Assembly (NCBI RefSeq): GCF_018420025.1
Contig: NZ_JAEDAM010000036.1
Location: 1-10,597 of the forward strand
DNA: 10,597 bases
Reading direction: 5' to 3'
DNA from: Candidatus Vampirococcus lugosii
GTDB taxonomy: Bacteria; Patescibacteriota; Gracilibacteria; Absconditabacterales; Absconditicoccaceae
Below, piece by piece: positions 1 to 10,597 of the stretch; position 1 is the stretch's first letter; each line of letters starts with the position of its first letter. A program made the translations under genes and the position numbers. Below the pieces are notes generated by a model. It saw only the letters and a list, made by a program, of their open reading frames with translations. It had not been told where the DNA came from and ran no database searches.

Positions 1-1116
1 TTTTAAAAGAGGCTTTACTTCTCTATCAATATTTGTTTCATCTAAATGGAAACACACTTGTATATTTGTATCTGTATCAGGCAAGTAAAAATCTATCTCA
101 TTTTCATCTTCTTTATAAAATACTTTATTATATTTTGTTTTTAGATTTAGATAAATAAGATTTTCAAAGTTTTGTCAAAGATTGTCTATATATCAAAATA
201 AAGTTCAAAATCAAAAATTATATAGATATTTATTTGAAGTTTTTTTATAAAAATTGTTTATATCTTCAACAAAAAATATGTTTTTTAGATATTCATAATA
301 ATTATAGATAGTATTTTTTCATATCTTAATTCATTGAGATTGTAGATTATTGTATATTTTAATAAGATTTAGTCTTTTGGTATTTGAAAGTATTATTCTT
401 TTTATCAGATACCTTATAGCTTTTTCATTTTCTATACTATATCTTTCAGTTAGGTCTTTATAAAACAATATATCAAAATATATTTTTAAAAGCTCTGTTT
501 TTACCATAGAATTTTTAGATATGACAAGCTCAGGAAAGGTTCAATATTTTAATATATCATTAAAAACTGATTTTATATATCACCTTGTAGAAGAAGAATA
601 TTTTTTTTCTTTTTTTATATCTTTAAAATGAAGTATTTCATTAAAATCAAGAGGATTTACAAAGTATTCATACACTCTTCACCTAAATTCAGTTACTAAC
701 TCACTTGATAATAATTTTGAATTTGAACCTGATATAAAGATTTGATATCATTGAGTGTATAATTGCAATACTAATTTTTGAAAATTTTCTATATCTTGAA
801 CCTCATCAAAAACAAGTAAGGGTTTTTTATTGTTTCCTAAAGAGTAGTAGCTTTTTATTATATCTTCAGGATCTACCTTATCTCATGCAAATATTGAAAA
901 ATCTATAAAAACTACTTGTTCTATTGAGTATAAATTTTTATCTATAAGTTCTTTTATAAATTGAAACATAAGATAAGTTTTTCACACCCTCCTAGGTCAT
1001 ATAAAAGAAACTATTTTGTTTAATTCTAAAATTTCTTCCTCAAAACTATAATTTCTTTTTTTTAGTTTAAGATTTTTTAGCTTTTCTTGATTGTCTTTTA
1101 TGATTTGAGAAAACAT
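1..1116 (-). CDS. AAA+ ATPase, DUF4143/COG1373 type (C-terminus runs off the left edge of the window)
   Basis: ATG at 1116-1114, with an in-frame TAG 16 codons upstream. The frame stays open to nt 1 when TGA is sense; I checked 1-600 codon by codon and found no in-frame TAA/TAG. Walker A F-I-G-P-R-R-V-G-K-T lies at 976-1005, with both glycines encoded by TGA (997-999 and 982-984). Walker B is LLVFDEVQ. It is followed by GSNSKLLSSELVTEFRGR, KYGTFPE, and a C-terminal ...ENLIYLNL...EIDFY... region typical of this family. Confidence 0.85.
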
Positions 1117-1296
1117 TTTGTTATTTATAAGTAAATAATTAAATAGAGTTCTATTCTTTATCTATAGATAATATAATTATTTTTAAAATAAAATCAACTT
1201 TTTTAATATTCTTTTATATAATAACTCCATTTGCTATTTTTTATAAAATATAATTTTTAGCAAGTATACTTGTTAAAAATAAAAATATAAAGTTTT

Positions 1297-2523
1297 TTAT
1301 CTATTAAATAAATTATAATATTTTTTTATATTTTCATTCCAATTAAATTTTGTTTCTATAATTTTTTTATTTTCTCTAGAATAGTTTTCTTTTTTATCTA
1401 AACTATTTATTCATGCTATAAGTCATTTTTTAAGCTCTTTTAAACTATCATTTTTTAATAATATACCATTTTTATTATCCTCTACCACTTCTTTAGCTCA
1501 CTCGTAAGGAGTAGAAACTATAAAACATCATAAATTCATAGCTTGTAATAGAGTAGTTGCAAGTCATCAACCAGGACTTGAGGTATGAAAATGTATATCA
1601 AATTGTTTTTGTAAATTTATTGCTTCTTGAAAAGATTTTCATCAAGTAAAGTACACTCCAGGGTGCTTTCTCTTGCTTTGCAATTCACCTTGTAACTTAT
1701 TTTCAGTATCTATTTTGTTTAATCTTTCAAAATCTTCTCATTCACCAACAACTACAATTTGTATTTTATCTTTAATATTTTCATCTAAATCATAATAAGC
1801 CTTTATTAAGGTGTCTATATTTTTCCACTTATAAAGTCTTCAAATAAATCAAACTATTATCTTACCAGGATAGCTTTCTTTTAGATTTTCAACTTTTTCA
1901 TTACTTTTCAAATCAAACTGCATTCATCTATATATAACTTCCACTTTTTTATTTATAAACTCTTTTTGTACAAAATCTTTACAAGCATTACTAACTCAAA
2001 CTAGCTTGTCTGCTTTCTTAAATATCCATTTTCAAATTATTTTATCATATATCTTAGCTATAAAACTTTTAAATTTACTATTTAACTTCACATAATCACT
2101 TCCATGCTCTATATGACACCATTTTAAATTATTTTTTCTAGCAAATAATCATCATATCAAACTTGTTAAGAAAAATCTTGTTCTTGTTATAACTATATCA
2201 GTTTTTTTTGTTTTTAAATATTGTTTGATAAGTTTATATTCCTTTGACCATATCTTATACATTGGGAAATTTGAAATTATCTCAAAACTTGGAACTATAA
2301 GATTTTCAACTCATTTTTCTATATATCATATAGATTTTCATTCAAAAGTTATTTGATTTTCTTTAGATATCTTATCTTTTTGATCAAAATCAGTGATAAT
2401 ATTTATAACATCTCAAAAATTATTTTCTCTATACTTTTCTCAAAACTGTTTAGCATGAGTTTCAAGTCCTCACTTATGTGGAGGAAAATAGGGTAGAAAT
2501 TGGATGATATTCAATCTTTTCAT
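1297..2523 (-). CDS. Glycosyltransferase, family 4 (GT-B fold)
   Basis: ATG 2523-2521, TAA 1299-1297, 408 aa. Every codon was checked and no in-frame TAA/TAG was found. N-terminus is MKRLNIIQFLPYFPPHKGGLETH, a GGxE-type motif whose first G is TGA at 2470-2472. Further motifs: VGFIGRLYKWKNIDTLIKA, VVVGEGED, and HTSSPGGGLATTLLQAMNLGCFIVSTPYEGAKEVVEDNKNGILL, which is the GT4 C-terminal nucleotide-sugar region. Many conserved Gly are TGA. Confidence 0.85.
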
Positions 2524-2761
2524 ATTTTATTATAATATTTTAAACACTTTTTATATATATATTTTTTCTTTAAAATCAATTTATATTTAAGAATAATCTA
2601 ATTCTAAATTATATTTTTTAGCTATCTTTAAGTAAATTTAATAATTTTAATATTGTATAAATTTCTCAAAATAGATAATCAAATTCGTCAAAAGTATCTT
2701 GAAAATTATTTTTAATGAGAAGTTTCAAACTTTTCCAAAAGATTATTTATTATAGTATAAA

Positions 2762-3949
2762 TTATTTTTTATCCGTCAAACTATTTCAACAATTTGAACA
2801 AAAAGGCATTCATTGTACAGTATATTTTTTGCAATGAGGACAAGCAATTTGTATTTCATAAGAACAAAGAGCACAATATGGTTTTTTTATATCAACATGA
2901 TTTCAACAATTTGGACATTTTTTGTCTGCTACAAATCTTTTTATAATATTTTCTTTACTATAAAGTCTTTTTTGTATTTTATATACTATAAATCAAAAAA
3001 TTCAAATTATAAAAACTGGCCATATAAATTGAAGTAAATAAATAATAGGTTTGAATGCAGTCAAAAAATCTACTATATATTCAAAAATTCTATGAGGAAT
3101 TATATCCCATAAAAATAAAAGAATAACTTGTAATAAGATAAATCCATAAGCAAAACTTGCAACTGAAAATATTATAGAATAAGGACTATTTTCTTTTTTT
3201 AATTTTGAATATAGTTTATAAACTATCAAAAATATTATAATTGAAAATATAAAGCTCAATATAGCTATATATATTCTATATACAAGATATGCTTTATCAT
3301 ATTCTTTTTCTACTCTTTCTATTTTTCCTCTTAATTTACTTATTACAACACTATTTTTATCTATCAAATTTGTTATTTGATTTTCTTTATCATTAATAAG
3401 ATTTTTATTTTTTTCCAAATCATGATAAAGTTCTTGCAGTTTATATTGTATACTTCATTTATCATATATTTTATTATCTTCGTTGGCTATATCTTCAGTT
3501 AAAGAAGTATCATAATTTTTATTTGTATTTGAAATATTATTTTCTATATTTTCTTTTTTTCTTTCAAGATCATTTAATTCTTGTTTCAATTCTGTTATAT
3601 TTTTATAATCATTTATTAATTTATCATATTCACTTGTAAAATCATATTTAGGTTTTGAAGAAATTAATTTGTAGTTTGAACATTCCAAGTTATTAGAGTA
3701 ATAATTCCAATAATTTTTGTTTTCAAATGTATTAATCATTCTTTCTATGCAAAAAGGTAGATCTTGAGGTTTATCTGGTATATCTTGTATTATATTTATA
3801 GTCCATTGTGAAGTTGATATAATAGCAAAAAACATAAGAAAAAGTAAAAAATATCATCATTTAGTAGTTTGCTTCTCAGTAAGTTCTTCTCATATATTAT
3901 GTTTGATATTTGTTTTAAAAATATTCTTAATATATTTTAACATCTTCAT
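2762..3949 (-). CDS. Membrane protein with central coiled coil and C-terminal double zinc ribbon (hypothetical)
   Basis: ATG 3949-3947 (TAA three codons upstream), TAA 2764-2762, 395 aa. It joins track ORFs 3455..3835 and 3002..3418 (same frame, separated only by TGA 3455-3457) to an unlisted 80-codon tail after TGA 3002-3004. N-terminal TM is YFLLFLMFFAIISTS. It is followed by a K/E/N-rich heptad-like region and at least three hydrophobic helices (IYIAILSFIFSIIIFLIVY, IIFSVASFAYGFILLQVILLFLW, IIYLLQFIWPVFIIGIFGFIVY). The tail reads CPNCGNHV..CALC...CPHC..........CSNCG, and the G of both CxxCG knuckles is TGA (2903-2905, 2786-2788). Confidence 0.7.
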
Positions 3950-4043
3950 AATATTTAATTATATAAAATATATATTTTTTATATAAAGATATTTATTTTT
4001 TTTTCAAACTAAAATTTATTATAAAAAATATTAATATAAAAAT

Positions 4044-4077
4044 AAAAACTCATATGTTAAGTGTTATATGAGTTTTT
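4044..4077 (-). terminator. Rho-independent terminator-like hairpin downstream of the sensor gene
   Basis: Perfect 12-bp inverted repeat aaaaactcatat (4044-4055) / atatgagttttt (4066-4077) with a 10-nt loop, 12 nt past the TAA of the 4089..5504 gene. On the minus strand the stem is followed by atttttat. The stem is AT-rich (2 G:C pairs), as expected in this genome. Confidence 0.5.
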
Positions 4078-4088
4078 AGATTAATATT

Positions 4089-5504
4089 TTATTTTAATTC
4101 GTCTGTCAATACTGATAAATGTTTAATAATTCATTCTTTTTTTGCATTTAAATCTGTATTAATATAGTCATATATTTCTTTTAATAAGTCAAGATCTGGA
4201 GATTTTGAATATTTATCAATTTTATCTTTTATTGCTTTTGCCATAGAATGAAATTCTTCATGCTCAGATAATAAATTTTGATAAGTTCAATTTTTAGACA
4301 AATTATTCATATAAGGTTCAATTTCTCAAGAATACAAAAACTTTCATAAATTACAACTCTTATGATCAGATACTTCAAAATCACTTTGTCATAGTATGAA
4401 ATTATTAAATTTAATAATAAACATTAAATGTTCAAATTTAGCTATTTCAATTTGTGATATTGCTAAATCAAGTCATTCCAATTTTTCATGATAAAAATTT
4501 CTTAAGTCAGAAATTAATTGATGCAATATAGTATTCATTCATCAAATTTTTGAACTAAGATTTGTCAAAAGTTTATCTACATTAGATAATATAGTATCTA
4601 ATTCATCTTGTATAGTATTATCATTAATTAAATCTCATATATTAGATTCTATCTTTTCAGCTTCTAATTTTGATTTTTCTATAGATTTATTTAAGTCTTT
4701 TATAGATCATTGAACCAAATTTCATGCAAGTTCAGAAATTTCTCTAGTTTCATTTGCTATAACAGAGAAACCTTTACCTTCATCTCATATTCTTGCAGCT
4801 TCAATAGAACCATTTATAGAAATTATTTTAATTTGTTTAGATATTTCTTGTACTTTTTCATTATTTCATACAACACTAGAAAAAAGAGCTAAATCTTCGT
4901 TTAATTTATTAAGAGAATTTTGTAATGCAGAATTTATAAAATCTTTTTGATTTATAACTCAATTTTTGGATAATTCTACCATTCAACTTGTCATTTTAAG
5001 AGATATTCATAATTCAGAATAATATTCAATTAATTCATATAAAGACATTAAAGATTCTCTAAGTTTATTAATATGATTTATTTCTTTTACTTCAGAAGTA
5101 ATATCAGTAAATATTCATATATAATATTTTTTACCTCAAATTTCAATAACATTTGAACTAGATCAAACTATTCTATCTCAAGCTGGAACTGTTGCATTTC
5201 TCATACTATCTCAGGGTTTAAGATTAGATAATTTAGTTGCCGATCTTTTTGGTGTTTTATGAAAATCGTGCATTGAAGTTTTTCAATCTATAATATTTAC
5301 TCAAGTAGCATCATAAATAATTTTCCTACCTATAGCATTACTTTTAACAATTATTCAAGTTTCAAGGTCTTCTACAACAAATATTCATTCACTTTTTAAA
5401 ACATCAAAAATAGAATAAGCAAGATCTCTTTGTAATTTTGTCTCTTCTAATTCTTCTTTCAAATTTGAAATATTTTTAGTATTTGATAAAGTATTTAATA
5501 CCAT
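4089..5504 (-). CDS. Soluble chemoreceptor-like sensor: PAS-like domain + MCP signalling hairpin + CZB (chemoreceptor zinc-binding) domain
   Basis: ATG 5504-5502, TAA 4091-4089, 471 aa; the hand translation count matches the nucleotide length exactly. Residues ~25-140 are PAS-like (…IFVVEDLETGIIVKSNAIGRKIIYDATG…KKYYIGIFTDITSEV). The MCP tip is IKIISINGSIEAARIGDEGKGFSVIANETREISELAGN, with the G in ARIGDE encoded by TGA 4785-4787. The C-terminal CZB pattern is AKFEH…SDHKSCNLGKFLYSGE…SEHEEFH, with the G in CNLGK encoded by TGA 4344-4346. No hydrophobic TM segment. Confidence 0.85.
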
Positions 5505-5773
5505 AATAAAATTTATGTTATATATATAAAATATAAAAGTAAATTCTTATAAATAATAAATTTTAAAAGTCAATATTTTTTTGACTAATCTTCTGCACCT
5601 AAATTAGAGAAAAGAGTGAATAATGAATGTCTACTAATTTCTGATAAAGAAATATCTTTTGTTTTCAAAAATCACTGTACTATTATCTTTTATTAGTTTA
5701 ACTGAATCTTTTTTGTAATTATATGTAAGTTTATATAACTTATGATAATATAATAAAAATATATTTAAATTTA

Positions 5774-6097
5774 TTAGTCAATCCAAAAGTTGTTTGAACA
5801 ATAATCACATTTGATATATGATTCTTTTTTACATTTTTTTTGAATTTTTGCTCAACAATTAGGACAAATAATATTATTTAATTTAGTATTATTTTGTTTT
5901 GATGACTTGGTAAAATATTTCAATATAATATAAGGCATTCAAAAAAAAGAACTAATAACTAATCAACCCAAAACGACTTCAAATTCTGATTCTTCTCATA
6001 GAATAAAAGCTATAAAAAATAATAAAGAAATAAATAAGCAAATATAGAAAAGTATTTGTAATATAATTATTATCGTATTTTTTATTTTGATTCACAT
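5774..6097 (-). CDS. Small membrane protein with C-terminal zinc ribbon (hypothetical)
   Basis: ATG 6097-6095, TAA 5776-5774, 107 aa. All codons were checked and no in-frame TAA/TAG was found. It is absent from the ORF track because it contains 6 in-frame TGA. Sequence: MGIKIKNTIIIILQILFYICLFISLLFFIAFILGEE…VVLGGLVISSFFGMPYIIL (two hydrophobic helices), then CPNCGAKIQKKCKKESYIKCDYCSNNF. The G of CPNCG is TGA 5852-5854. Confidence 0.6.
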
Positions 6098-6272
6098 ATT
6101 TAATTTTATTAATTAGAAGTATAAAAAAAATTATTATTTACTAATGAATTTATAATAAAATTTTTGAAAAATACAAGAAATAATAAAAAAACTTGCAAAA
6201 TAAAAATGGCGAACTATTTGCTAGCTTATTTTTTTTAGATTAAAAGTTTGAAACTACAAGTATTGAAATTCT

Positions 6273-7052
6273 TTACTTTATATTTTCTATTATTTTTTCT
6301 TGAAATAAAGGAGAAGACCAAATATTATTATGTCCTTTATTTTTAATTAATATATATTTTTTATCTTTACTAGGAACTTTTTCAAATAATTTTTTAGAAA
6401 ATTTGTTAGGTATTACTAAATCATTGTCTCAATGAAGAATTAATAATGAGCCTTCATAATTTTGTAGGTATTTAATGTTATCAAATTTTTCTTTCAAAAG
6501 AATATTGGCAGGATAGATAATATATTTTGATTGAACAAGATCAACTAATTTTCAAAAAGGTGTAGTTAATATTAATTTATTTACATTTCATATACTAGCA
6601 TGATAGCTAGCAGGACCAGAACCAATACTCTCGCCATAAATAATTATTTTTTTGTATCATTTTTCTTCAATGTAATTTTTAATATTTATAGCATCTTTAA
6701 GAATTAAATTCTTGGATGGTCTAACTGTATCATTTGAATATCATGCATATTCAACAAAAACTAATGAGGCATTTGATTTTTCAAATATAGATTTGAAATA
6801 ACTTCTATCACAAGCTGATCATGCATTTCAATGATAGTAAACAATGACTTTATCTTTATTATTATTCTTGAAATAAAATCTTGTTCCATTAAAATTTATT
6901 TTTTCATATTCATTAAATCCATCACATTTATCAAAATCTTGATTATTTGGATAATATAACATTGTTTTTTGATTAAAAAATAATAACATACCAATTATTA
7001 TATAAATAATTGTAATTAAAATAAAAATAGAAACTAATATTTTTGTATACAT
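6273..7052 (-). CDS. Membrane-anchored alpha/beta-fold serine hydrolase (COG1073/BEM46-like)
   Basis: ATG 7052-7050, TAA 6275-6273, 259 aa. It extends track ORF 6828..7052 through TGA 6828-6830. N-terminal anchor is ILVSIFILITIIYIIIGMLLFF. Motifs: oxyanion-hole YYHGNAGSA (first G is TGA 6828-6830), EYAGYS, nucleophile elbow GESIGSG (6615-6635), acid motif LHGDNDLVIP (G is TGA 6429-6431), and catalytic His in KGHNN. Confidence 0.85.
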
Positions 7053-7310
7053 AATAATACATTTAGTAATTTTTATAAAAAGTGTTAAAATTTATTTATA
7101 TAATATATTTTTTATAAAAATTTTCAACTTAATATCTTTTCTTATTAGTAGATATTATGGTGGAAATAAAAAAGTTAAATATATTTGTGGAATTAAAGAT
7201 GTTAATATAATAGAAATTTTAAAATAAAAATATTTTTAGTTTAAAATTGTTTATTACTAAGTTTCTGCATTAAAAATGCACTGAAATTAATTTTTGGTAT
7301 TTTTAAATTA

Positions 7311-7340
7311 AAAAATATAAAAAAATATAAAAAAATATTA
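7311..7340. repeat. Three phased 10-bp A-tract units (aaaaatataa aaaaatataa aaaaatatta)
   Basis: Direct reading of 7311-7340 shows a 10-bp period, which matches the helical repeat. It lies about 25 bp upstream of the candidate promoter for the CCA-enzyme gene. Confidence 0.6.
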
Positions 7341-7365
7341 AATTGCAAGACTAATAAATTTCCTC

Positions 7366-7394
7366 TTGAAATATGATATATAAATAGATATATT
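7366..7394 (+). promoter_or_regulatory. Candidate sigma70-like promoter for the CCA-adding enzyme gene
   Basis: TTGAAA (7366-7371), a 17-bp spacer, then TATATT (7389-7394), about 50 bp upstream of ATG 7444. This is weak evidence, because such hexamers arise by chance in DNA this AT-rich. Confidence 0.25.
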
Positions 7395-7443
7395 ATTTAT
7401 TGATAATAAGAAAATTATTTTTAAACTAATTAATTTTATAAAA

Positions 7444-9162
7444 ATGCTTAATTTAGATTGAATTAATATTTTGGATAAACATTTTAAATATTTGAAAACA
7501 AAGATAAATAAAGAAAATATTTTTATAGTTTGATGAAGTATTAGAGATATACTTTTGGATATTGAAAAAGATCCTAAAGATATAGATATTACAACGGATC
7601 AAGATCCGCAAACTATATTTTCTCAAATAAAACAAGAAGAAATTTCTATTTTTAAAACTGATAAATTTGGTACAATAACTATTGTTCCCAAATGACAAGA
7701 TTCAAATATTGAAAAAGTGAAATATGAATTAACTCCATTGAGAAGTGAATGACAATATGATGATTTTCGTCATCCTTGAAAAATAAATCGAACAAATAAT
7801 ATAGTTTTAGATAGTAAGAGAAGAGATTTTACAATAAATTGTCTTTACTATTTTAGTATTGATTTAGATTATATAAAACCTAATTATAACAAGATAAAAG
7901 ATGAATTAGATTTAATAAAAAAATTAAAAAAAAATTGAAAAGTTTTTCTTTTAGACAAAAATATTTTGATAATAAAAGATAAAGAATTGATCAATAAATT
8001 ATTTCCAAATGCTAATCTTGATATAGAAATTTTGAAAGATATTATAAAAAATAATTCTTATAATATAAGTAATGATTTTGTTGATAAAAAAAATATAAGT
8101 ATAATAATAGATCCTTGGTGAGGTATTGAAGATATATTAAATAAAAAAATTAAAGCTGTATGAGAAGCAGATTCTAGATTTCAAGAAGATGCTTTGAGAA
8201 TTATAAGATGAGTTAGAATTCCAAATATATTAAATCAAAAAATAAAAAAAGATAAAAATAAAATAAAAGAAACTATTTTTTTTGATTATGATTGAGAAAC
8301 TTGGGCTAGTATGAAAAAAAATTATTTCTTGGTACAATTTATAGCAAAAGAAAGAATTAAAGATGAAATAATGAAAGTTTTTATTGCTGATAATCCTTTT
8401 GGATTTGTTGTATTGCTTGATGAATTAAATATATTAAAATATATATTCCCATATTTGTATATGACAAAAAATAATAATCAACCTGTAAGATATCATGCAT
8501 TTGATACTTATGCTCATACTATTTTGTGTTTTTATAATATACAATTTATAAATAAAGATCCTTTAGTTAGATTTGCTATGTTATATCATGATGTAGGTAA
8601 ACCGGATCAATATTACTGTTCAAGTTTATTGGATAGAGAAGAAAGAAAAAAAATACATTCTATGCGAATAAACCATTCAACTTGTTGAGCAGATATGACA
8701 TTACAAGATTTTAAAAAATTATGATTTTCCAAAAAAGAATGTGAAACTATTAGTTTTTATGTAAAAGAACATTTATTGGCTTGAGAAATATTGTCTTGAA
8801 AAGAAAAAAATATTATTAAAAAAATAAAAAAATTATTATCATCAATATGATACAAAAAATTACAAAATTTGATAGATATATGTATAGCAGATAGAAGATG
8901 ACAATATAATCCTCTCCAGTTAGAAAATGTAGATGTATTACAAAATTTAAAAAAATTAATTGATGAAATATATGAAAAACAATGAGAATTTACACAAAAA
9001 GATTTAAAAATTGATGGTAATATCGTGATTGAAGAAATGCAAATAAATCCTTGACCTCAAGTATGAATCTTATTACAAAAAGCTTTGAATTGGGTAATAC
9101 AAGATATTGATAATAGAAATAATAAAGAAATAATAATTGAATATTTAAATAAAAATATGTAA
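7444..9162 (+). CDS. cca: Class II tRNA nucleotidyltransferase (CCA-adding enzyme) with C-terminal HD domain
   Basis: ATG 7444, TAA 9160-9162, 572 aa, in frame with track ORF 8311..8688. Motifs: IFIVGGSIRDILL (GG is TGA-TGA at 7531-7536), DIDITT, LRSEGQYDDFRHPG, RRDFTIN (7819-7839), [37 protein letters not shown] (from 8110; TGG for W is immediately followed by TGA for G at 8119-8121). HD-domain motifs are YHAFDTYAHT and LYHDVGKP. I cannot separate CCA-adding from CC-/A-adding or poly(A) polymerase activity from sequence alone. Confidence 0.88.
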
Positions 9163-9243
9163 TCTCGATAATGATATAATAAAAATATAAATAAATTGAG
9201 ATAAATAAAAATGAGATTTTGAATAATAAGAAAAAATATTTTT

Positions 9244-10597
9244 TTATAAAGAATTATTTATAATATTTAATTCTTCAATTTTTTCTTTTTGATATTTTAG
9301 TTGTCTATATAAATCATCTAAATCTTGATTACAATTATATTTATTTTCTTCACACCATTGTATATCAGCTTTTAAAATATCTACCATTCTTTTGGCATCT
9401 TTTAGTTTTTGTTCATCATTACGATTATCTTTTCAAGATACAAAATCAATAATTTTTCAAACTTTTTTACCTACATCTTTTGATATTTTTTCAATTCATT
9501 TATCTATATTTAATAATTTTCAAGGTCTTAAATTTTTTAGTTTATTTCAAAATTTTTCAATTTGTAATGATAGCTTGGGAGATATTTTGTATACCATATT
9601 ACTAACATTTGACACCATAGTTCAAACAGTATCAATAGTTTTATCTACTGGATTATTTTTTAAAAGTTCATTTGCAATTCCATTTAGATATCAAGTAACT
9701 TTTGCTTGTACTTGTGACATACCTTTATTTTCATAATTTTTTATTTTATCTTTTATAGTTTGAATTTTTTGATAAGTGTTAAAAACTTTCAATAATTTTG
9801 ATCAATTTTTTGTTTTTTTGAGATGATTTTTTATACTTTCTTCATTAAGATATTTATTTTTTATAAATTGTTCAGGTTTATCTATAATATTTTTTATTTT
9901 TATAATTTTTTCAATTTCATCTTTATTTTTTGATTTTAAATTTTTAATAAATTCTTGTTGTTTTTTATTTTTGTATTCATCAGCTTTTTTTCTTACAAAT
10001 TCTTCTGGATCATCTTGAAATTTTTTATAATCATCATATATTAATGACCAGTATTTTTCCTTTCTTTTTAAATCATTATTTTTTGATTTTAAATTTTTAA
10101 TAAATTCTTGTTGTTTTTTATTTTTGTATTCATCAGCTTTTTTTCTTACAAATCCTTCTGGATCATCTTGAAATTTTTTATAATCATCATATATTAATGA
10201 CCAGTATTTTTTCTTTCTTTTTAAATCATTATTTATTTCTTTTAATTCATTTGAATATTTTCTCAAATCATTTTTAATTTCATTTATATTGTTCTTTCAA
10301 CTTTTAATAATTTTAAAAAGTCAATTAGAATTTTGAAAAACATTTTTAATTTTTTCTTCATTATCCAATATTTCTTCTATTTTTAAAGTTCAAGTATTTA
10401 TTTTTTTTATAATTGAATCTATATCTTTGATACCATCATCAACTTTATTAAAAATATTGTCCAATTCATTATTTGCATTATTTTCATTATTTTCATTATT
10501 TTCATTATTTTCATTATTTTCATTATTTTCATTATTTTCATTATTTTCATTATTTTCATTATTTTCATTATTTTCATTATTTTCATTATTTTCATTA
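9244..10597 (-). CDS. K/N/E-rich repeat-containing coiled-coil protein (hypothetical; N-terminus beyond the right edge)
   Basis: TAA 9246-9244. The frame is open from 9247 to 10597 with TGA as sense, checked codon by codon outside the track ORF 9802..10266 that it extends in both directions. It reads (NNE)n-NNANNELDNIFNKVDDGIKDIDS…, then two 51-aa repeats NNDLKRK(K/E)KYWSLIYDDYKKFQDDPE(G/E)FVRKKADEYKNKKQQEFIKNLKSK, then …VTGYLNGIANELLKNNPVDKTIDTVGTMVSNVSNMVYKISPKL…QWCEENKYNCNQDLDDLYRQLKYQKEKIEELNIINNSL. I recognised no known domain. Confidence 0.7.
9923..10234. repeat. Tandem duplication, 2 x 153 bp (51 codons), inside the repeat protein gene
   Basis: Position-by-position alignment of 9923-10075 against 10076-10228 (offset 153) gives only two mismatches: 10001 t vs 10154 c, and 10059 c vs 10212 t. 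Homology continues a few bases, to 10234. Confidence 0.9.
10465..10597. repeat. 9-bp coding microsatellite (ttcattatt)n, about 14.8 units, truncated by the window end
   Basis: Units start at 10465, 10474, 10483 and so on. Only the second unit differs (tgcattatt). It is in frame with the 9244..10597 gene and encodes (Asn-Asn-Glu)n on the minus strand. Confidence 0.95.

Follow-up and report, generated by a model that had tools for sequence, protein, structure and literature searches.

A soluble PAS-MCP-CZB chemoreceptor-like protein of Candidatus Vampirococcus lugosii belongs to a conserved family in bacteria that read UGA as glycine

Candidatus Vampirococcus lugosii is an epibiotic predator of Halochromatium that belongs to the Absconditabacteria (SR1) and has a 1.3-Mb genome in which UGA encodes glycine (Moreira et al., 2021, PMC8080830). 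Flagella and flagellar genes are absent, and type IV pilus genes are many (PMC8080830). Contig NZ_JAEDAM010000036.1 of this organism, of which positions 1 to 10,597 were analysed (referred to here as the window), carries at 4089..5504 on the minus strand a gene for a receptor of the methyl-accepting chemotaxis protein (MCP) class. What does such a receptor sense, and to what does it signal, in a cell without flagella? The gene is not isolated: it belongs to a family that spans Absconditabacteria, Gracilibacteria and Altimarinota, is monophyletic and is under purifying selection. The answer that we consider somewhat probable is that the gene codes for a functional sensor of the MCP class, soluble and dimeric, which takes two inputs in the cytoplasm.

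The reading frame depends on the genetic code. Under table 11, 25 TGA codons interrupt the frame, and the window as a whole contains almost no long open reading frames (ORFs); when stops are limited to TAA and TAG, a single ORF occupies 4089-5504 on the minus strand and the window resolves into eight long TGA-rich genes. Translated with table 25, the complete coding sequence of the soluble PAS-MCP-CZB protein runs from an ATG at 5502-5504 to a TAA at 4089-4091 and specifies 471 amino acids, with all 25 TGA codons read as glycine. A 471-residue product in a code-25 genome was what the original prediction had proposed, and the frame is indeed intact only with TGA as glycine; the coordinates were also exact, and the strand, which had been left out, is minus. 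TGA accounts for 25 of the 30 glycine codons of the gene, the DNA has a GC content of about 20%, and codon usage is fully ameliorated. TGA codons of the receptor gene sit at glycines conserved in standard-code homologs (G240 in the hairpin tip, G387 in CNLGK and G98 in KPGD), and elsewhere in the window the same reading restores the motifs GPRRVGKT of an AAA ATPase, HGNAGS and GESIGSG of an alpha/beta hydrolase and GGSIRD of a CCA-adding enzyme. The protein (P0001) is 100% identical to a GenBank entry of V. lugosii named 'methyl-accepting chemotaxis protein'. A second database protein (P0002, 95% identical) was rejected as a close relative for dN/dS estimates: it derives from the very DNA of the receptor gene (Logan contig L001, without differences over the gene), with TGA read as tryptophan. 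This table-4 translation inserts 25 tryptophans into a receptor that has no genuine one; it keeps the MCPsignal annotation and loses the precomputed CZB match, whereas the table-25 protein has both. The assignment of TGA to glycine is independently supported, because the CZB domain is lost under table 4 and G387 of CNLGK is itself a TGA codon. When code-25 genes are translated with the wrong code (table 4 or 11), their domain annotation in public protein sets is silently degraded.

The core of the protein is an MCP coiled-coil hairpin, residues 136-341 (4482..5099, minus strand), recognised from the MCPsignal profile, the predicted structure and a match to Thermotoga Tm14. MCPsignal (PF00015) scores 45.2 bits over residues 217-309, against a Pfam gathering cut-off of 34.6, and the top PDB matches by sequence are MCP fragments, soluble or cytoplasmic (E 1e-7 to 7e-5), with Tm14 first (E 1.3e-7). 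No transmembrane segment was found, the highest 19-residue Kyte-Doolittle mean being 1.08, in agreement with the earlier proposal of a protein without membrane helices. The short signalling hairpin with a canonical tip that had also been proposed is present, with the tip EAARIGDEGKGF exactly where it had been placed, at residues 235-246. Within the family, conservation peaks in the tip core, residues 225-256 (4737..4832, minus strand; IKIISINGSIEAARIGDEGKGFSVIANETREI): of its 32 residues, 10 (31%) are invariant in the code-25 clade, compared with about 1% in the arms. The receptor tip, EAARIGDEGKGFSVIANETR, has the conserved EAAR-G-x2-G-x-GF-x-V-x-A-x-E-x-R pattern of MCP hairpins. The N-terminal arm, from Thr136 at the end of the PAS domain to Gly240 at the tip, measures exactly 104 residues in all seven code-25 homologs, and the C-terminal arm, from the tip to the helix end at residue 341, about 101; this corresponds to about 14-15 heptads per arm, or roughly 28H-30H by residue count. 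No Pfam match to a HAMP domain was obtained, and the I-beta strand of the PAS domain passes directly into the hairpin helix at residue 136. The methylation-site consensus [ASTG]2-x2-[EQ]2-x2-[ASTG]2 has no match in the receptor sequence; this does not disqualify the protein as an MCP, TlpD and Tm14 likewise having no such sites. Residue 253 (4743-4745) is threonine in all seven code-25 receptors, giving E-T-R at the tip versus E-V-R in aligned standard-code MCPs. Judged from this alignment, E-T-R is a clade-specific change at the presumed kinase-control tip.

The hairpin is followed by a C-terminal CZB domain, residues 344-470 (4095..4475, minus strand), identified from Pfam, the DgcZ match and the model and comprising helices 344-370, 385-391, 406-434 and 438-470. 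CZB (PF13682) scores 38.5 bits over residues 359-425 (gathering cut-off 29.4), so that both the MCPsignal and the CZB profiles expected by the original prediction lie above their cut-offs under table 25. A single-sequence phmmer search of this region against the PDB returned nothing relevant; the family profile was required, and it matches E. coli DgcZ (3t9o) at E 3.7e-6 with all four zinc ligands aligned. The predicted ligands of the receptor are His359 (codon 4428..4430), Cys384 (4353..4355) and His415-x3-His419 (4248..4262, the third and fourth ligands), all on the minus strand. None of them varies among the seven code-25 members or among 17 CZB sequences, and the full pattern of three histidines and one cysteine that had been read from the sequence is upheld by profile and invariance alike. 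Cys384, which lies in DHKSCNLGK, is the sole cysteine of the receptor and is predicted to be both a zinc ligand and redox-reactive, the role of this residue in zinc and HOCl sensing having been described for CZB proteins, among which soluble chemoreceptors are the commonest architecture (PMC8262984).

The N-terminal input is a PAS domain of a particular kind. A poorly conserved helix (residues 2-35; 5400..5501, minus strand, from the predicted secondary structure) precedes the PAS core, residues 36-135 (5100..5399, minus strand). An exhaustive HMMER search recovered a small number of full-length homologs with a common N-domain pattern, (S/T)-I-H-x-F-H-K-x-P-x-R ... L-K-P-G ... N ... D-x-T. PAS_9 matches the N-domain in seven of ten homologs, and the homolog N-domain profile matches the PAS-heme domain of Pseudomonas aeruginosa Aer2 (3vol, E 4.8e-9; 4hi4, E 9.9e-9) as well as the Vibrio cholerae Aer2 PAS (6ceq, E 2e-4). 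Comparison of the N-domain with the Aer2 PAS by hhalign gives a probability of 97.4% and E 1.3e-11. In this alignment, with P. aeruginosa numbering checked against the 3vol chain, the heme-ligating E-eta His234 corresponds to His82 (motif MHDFHKTP; codon 5259..5261), Asp285-Arg-Thr287 to D134-I-T136 at the junction between PAS and output (5097..5105), Trp283 of the I-beta strand to Phe132 (5109-5111) and Leu264 of the H-beta strand to Ser115, all on the minus strand. The E-eta histidine is the heme ligand in Aer2 PAS domains, the DxT motif connects PAS to the downstream helix, and the I-beta tryptophan, described as 'universally conserved', stabilises O2 (PMC10107281). His82 is kept in all seven code-25 members and, among the seven standard-code homologs whose alignment covers the PAS, in six (P0019 has Glu); His79, three residues upstream, is conserved in most members, not all. 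The DxT motif and Asn103 are invariant among the seven code-25 members, and Phe81 is also highly conserved. Position 132 is Phe in all seven, Trp in the Aquificota homologs P0016 and P0169 and Met in P0014. On these alignments the N-domain is an Aer2-type PAS with its heme ligand retained and its distal pocket altered, and it is predicted that it likely binds heme. O2 itself may not be the ligand, because Phe replaces the O2-binding Trp and Ser the H-beta Leu. From residue spacing, Asn103 may occupy the G-beta site at which an O2-binding Tyr is found in some Aer2 PAS domains.

The predicted structure contains all three parts, as had been anticipated: PAS, hairpin and helical CZB. The AlphaFold2 model, built from a 51-sequence alignment, has a mean predicted local distance difference test (pLDDT) score of 93.7 and a predicted template modelling score of 0.77, and the CZB helices exceed a pLDDT of 94. 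An N-terminal helix (2-35) leads to PAS strands 39-44, 51-55, 100-108, 111-122 and 125-134; the last strand continues into a very long helix (136-294, with the tip near 240), followed by helix 297-341. The PAS-like fold formerly proposed for residues ~25-140 is present as a five-stranded sheet at 39-134, and its type is refined from a generic PAS to the Aer2 heme-PAS. Foldseek matches the PAS to the heme and LOV sensors FixL, DOS, DosP and YF1, and the hairpin to Tm14 (3g6b, TM-score 0.61 over 211 columns), TM1143 and Tsr.

The nearest homologs of the receptor all come from TGA-recoded genomes. They are full-length, share 26-41% identity with it and have TGA at glycine positions, with 5-23 in-frame TGA codons each in loci of 17-36% GC. 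The closest (P0008 = L002/L005, 41%) is from 'Ca. Gracilibacteria bacterium GSC-VFA-60'; others are from 'Ca. Gracilibacteria bacterium STC_120' (P0161 = L004/L006, 33%), from 'Ca. Altimarinota bacterium' (P0157 = L003, 26%), from a record labelled 'Patescibacteria group bacterium' (L007) and from metagenome or Logan contigs (P0009 = L013, P0012 = L014, P0013 = L012). Compared with 13 standard-code homologs, the seven code-25 sequences are monophyletic in 200 of 200 neighbour-joining bootstraps. The pair L003/L007 shows 14.5 synonymous and 11.5 non-synonymous differences (dN/dS 0.20), six of the seven lineages have an intact ORF, and the invariant residues of the clade include 13 of 100 in the PAS core and 12 of 91 in the CZB domain. 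A scan of genome contigs, a collection that excludes V. lugosii, yielded only three family loci. The sole locus from the metagenome scan (L008) was rejected as a member, being an unrelated ordinary transmembrane MCP, and a word-index profile search based on the family alignment gave nothing beyond the query, its table-4 twin and ordinary MCPs, common tip words having swamped the candidates. In L012 (6100-7539) the DxT junction itself is interrupted by an in-frame TAA/TAG (GIF*DET), and the tip Arg, otherwise invariant, is His; this copy may be a pseudogene, or it may have been split into one gene for the PAS alone and another for MCP-CZB.

The origin of the family can be placed in outline. In V. 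lugosii the gene is VAMP_85_59, one of 126 genes listed as acquired by horizontal gene transfer (HGT; Moreira et al., 2021, PMC8080830). Because the code-25 sequences are monophyletic and codon amelioration is complete, we infer that the transfer preceded the divergence of the code-25 lineages and did not occur in V. lugosii itself. An ancestor of the clade probably gained only the receptor gene, from a donor that had flagella. L003 (7473-15549) and L014 (39-4436) have an RNHCP gene upstream and TilS-like ATP_bind_3 and PG_binding_1 genes downstream in common; this partial synteny, together with similar BLASTP identities to the query (~25-26%), points to vertical descent within that sublineage. 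The gene is neither an unnoticed oddity nor a one-off: it was already named an MCP in GenBank and listed as HGT-derived in the supplement of the genome paper, and it is a member of a monophyletic family across seven lineages with TGA-recoded genomes. The TlpD-type architecture is likewise known. What appears not to have been described before is a conserved, selected and che-unlinked family across the UGA=Gly clade within the Candidate Phyla Radiation (CPR), and, as it also appears, the Aer2-type identity of the PAS domain in CZB receptors.

The layout of the receptor matches that described for Helicobacter pylori TlpD, which is soluble and has an N-terminal PAS, a short methyl-accepting (MA) hairpin and a C-terminal CZB with three His and one Cys. 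A crystal structure of TlpD (2026) shows a PAS-MA-CZB protein with a hairpin about half as long as that of Tsr and no methylation sites (bioRxiv 10.64898/2026.01.16.699579). Solubility, an MA hairpin and a C-terminal CZB characterise TlpD-type soluble CZB chemoreceptors, in which an N-terminal PAS is optional, and the Vampirococcus protein has all three of these features; like TlpD it has no canonical methylation sites, and the Glu/Arg pair cited for trimer formation in the TlpD paper is kept in its tip. The PAS of TlpD is degenerate and pocketless, in contrast to the Aer2-like PAS with a heme-ligand His found here. TlpD also signals to CheW, CheA and CheV in a flagellated bacterium (PMC6715182), whereas V. 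lugosii lacks flagella and its receptor gene has no che neighbours. Aer2, the PAS-heme O2 receptor of P. aeruginosa, V. cholerae and V. vulnificus, shares the homologous PAS, the E-eta His, the DxT motif and the soluble MCP character. Aer2 differs in that HAMP domains flank its PAS on either side, its hairpin is long, a CZB is absent and the I-beta Trp is universal (PMC10107281), and it is encoded in F7 che clusters; the Vampirococcus receptor has no HAMP, Phe for Trp, Ser for the H-beta Leu, and a CZB. Orthology with Aer2 is ruled out by the missing HAMP, I-beta Trp and F7 cluster, and only the PAS is Aer2-like. Tm14 of Thermotoga maritima (3g6b/3g67), the best PDB sequence match, is a soluble MCP of similar hairpin length, but it has no sensor domains. 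E. coli DgcZ (CZB-GGDEF) has a homologous CZB, for which a zinc/HOCl mechanism via the Cys is established (PMC8262984).

The full-length architecture recurs outside the recoded clade in PAS-MCP-CZB receptors of Aquificota (WP_409154083.1 = P0169, from Hydrogenobacter sp. Uz 6-8; Venenivibrio stagnispumantis; P0014), which are 25-31% identical and carry the IHxFHKxPxR and DxT motifs as well as the CZB ligands. Unlike the code-25 family, they use the standard code, have an EVR rather than an ETR tip and occur as tandem paralogs inside che/flagellar clusters. P0169 and P0014 lie in tandem with paralogous MCP-CZB genes, and their clusters encode CheV, CheA, CheW, CheZ, CheY, CheR, CheB, FliG, FliM, FliN and rod proteins. 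Since these nearest standard-code homologs are located within such clusters, the receptor gene apparently came over without its pathway, or else the pathway disappeared afterwards. Two irregularities were observed among the Aquificota genes. The V. stagnispumantis protein of the P0016 cluster is represented in RefSeq by two ORFs of 194 and 333 aa (P0165/P0166) and in metagenome copies by one of 494 aa; the split may reflect a frameshift, gene fission or an error in sequencing. In Hydrogenobacter (L009 and L010, 6500-10004), the same che cluster is annotated with full-length MCP-CZB paralogs of 478 and 512 aa in one assembly and with only 146-149-aa 'CZB-only' ORFs in the other, and its interior holds a conserved stand-alone PAS gene (169 aa) and a small DnaJ-like gene.

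The surroundings of the code-25 genes are different. The window contains no che genes, by annotation and by tblastn, as the original prediction had noted for cheA, cheW and cheY; its other genes encode an AAA_14 ATPase, a GT4 glycosyltransferase, two zinc-ribbon membrane proteins, an alpha/beta hydrolase and a CCA-adding enzyme. Near the seven code-25 copies no che, fla or pil genes were found, and the genes around them are housekeeping genes, including at other loci those for GroES/EL, FtsH, leucyl-tRNA synthetase and the elongation factors EF-Ts and EF-P. A tblastn search (table 25) with CheA, CheW, CheV, CheY, CheZ, CheR and CheB of the Aquificota clusters detected no homolog in 104 kb of code-25 DNA around the seven copies, the only scoring match being the CZB of the receptors themselves. 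Promoter and terminator scans around the receptor gene gave promoter matches at the level of chance for DNA of 20% GC and no terminator, and no tRNA was found in the window.

A scheme for the two-input sensor can be drawn from these features. The protein would act as a homodimer. Heme b bound to His82 would report a gas or the redox state, and the PAS signal would enter the helix of the N-terminal arm via the DxT junction. At the other end, Zn(II) would be held by H359, C384, H415 and H419, and oxidation of Cys384 by HOCl or peroxide, or loss of zinc, would alter the C-terminal arm; an oxidant mechanism involving the CZB cysteine and zinc is known from TlpD and DgcZ (PMC6715182, PMC8262984). 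Both inputs would converge on the conserved hairpin tip, which would control a conserved partner. That partner, the weakest step of the scheme, could be an unlinked minimal CheW/CheA-like module or a non-Che protein. In a pilus-rich epibiont without flagella, the most plausible target would be attachment or detachment by type IV pili, or a pilus-dependent search for hosts, within the mat's oxic/sulfidic gradient.

The findings that weigh against this proposal concern its output and its heme input. On the output side, the link to type IV pili is pure inference, and no pil gene adjoins any copy of the receptor gene. The alternative output suggested by the original prediction, control of type IV pili or an orphan role, is neither favoured nor contradicted by these findings. 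The tip keeps the near-canonical residues N231, E235, R238, F246, V248, E252 and R254, including those that we take to be equivalent to Tsr N381, E385, R388, F396 and V398. This near-canonical tip is the strongest argument for a surviving CheW/CheA-like partner and therefore favours an ordinary chemoreceptor, which would use an unlinked CheA/CheW/CheY set, for example of the type IV pilus (Tfp)/Chp-like kind, to steer type IV pili in V. lugosii and its code-25 relatives. Che genes are not always clustered with their receptors. The high conservation of the tip and its TlpD-type trimer-contact residues fit such a pathway, as do the many type IV pilus genes and a second 'chemotaxis protein' of the V. 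lugosii genome, VAMP_18_221, in the same HGT list (PMC8080830 Supplementary Data 1). Against it, the terms CheA, CheW and CheY are absent from the part of the supplementary tables of the genome paper that was covered (PMC8080830), and no che homolog occurs in the 104 kb. CPR bacteria are moreover said, in a review-type statement, to lack the full motility and chemotaxis machinery (PMC11974145), and papers on the gene content of Gracilibacteria and Absconditabacteria do not mention chemotaxis, the literature on their che genes offering generic statements only. We regard an ordinary chemoreceptor as somewhat unlikely. That the code-25 CPR clade keeps its chemoreceptor without any CheA or CheW, the tip signalling to a partner outside the Che system (such as ATPases or regulators of type IV pili, or the genome's listed HD-GYP-type hydrolase), seems rather doubtful as well.

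On the input side, no Pfam PAS model matches the receptor itself. The Aer2 I-beta Trp and H-beta Leu are not kept, and V. lugosii has no cofactor biosynthesis (PMC8080830), so that any heme would have to be scavenged from the host. These observations, along with the pocketless PAS of TlpD, fit an alternative in which CZB is the sole sensor, responding only to oxidants or zinc, and the PAS is a cofactor-less structural module. Yet the PAS core is as conserved as the CZB domain (13% invariant residues in each), His82 and DxT are invariant in the code-25 members, Phe81 and Asn103 are highly conserved, and the homology is specifically to the heme-binding PAS of Aer2, all of which makes a CZB-only sensor unlikely. 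A decaying remnant of an HGT gene without current function, which the HGT listing, the lack of partner genes nearby and the stop codon and tip substitution of L012 might suggest, is very improbable in view of the intact ORF in six of seven lineages despite divergence to 26-41% identity, the invariance of all ligand residues, the dN/dS of 0.20 and the full codon amelioration.

Other features of the window and of the HGT list deserve mention. CxxC zinc-ribbon-ending membrane proteins flank the receptor gene on both sides (2762-3958 and 5774-6112, both on the minus strand); the product of the former combines a long coiled coil, four transmembrane helices with a weak MARVEL-like match and a double zinc ribbon. 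The AAA_14/DUF4143 ATPase gene at 1-1161 (minus strand) is cut by the start of the window and is probably the HGT-listed VAMP_85_12, in which case two HGT-flagged genes lie on this 10.6-kb contig. At 9244-10597 (minus strand) an ORF of more than 451 aa without a Pfam match runs off the end of the window. A 153-bp tandem repeat within it (9901-10245; 2.3 copies, 92% identical) doubles a block of 51 aa, and its N-terminus is encoded by 14.8 copies of a 9-bp repeat (10465-10597) specifying (NEN)n; the product may be a variable surface or secreted protein. The HGT list of V. lugosii further includes the HD-GYP-type hydrolase (VAMP_22_222) and the zinc transporter ZupT (VAMP_8_278; PMC8080830 Supplementary Data 1), a superoxide dismutase and a 'coproporphyrinogen III oxidase' that is possibly a HemW-like heme chaperone (PMC8080830). 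Together with VAMP_18_221, these could be relevant to a sensor of heme, zinc and oxidants.

Next to nothing is known about the ways in which epibionts and predators of the CPR perceive their environment and locate or keep hold of hosts, and chemotaxis machinery is generally said to be missing from these lineages. A soluble receptor that is conserved, under selection and likely equipped with heme and zinc/thiol inputs provides a concrete, clonable handle on sensing in the CPR. If a Che kinase is present in these genomes, the receptor would reveal a cryptic chemosensory pathway, probably linked to pili, in Absconditabacteria and Gracilibacteria. If there is none, the family would be a natural case of an MCP outside the Che pathway. 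Should the tip signal to a non-Che partner, gas or redox state sensed by heme and oxidant or zinc state sensed by CZB would be coupled to attachment or predation, and this would represent an MCP output pathway of an undescribed kind in an obligate epibiont.

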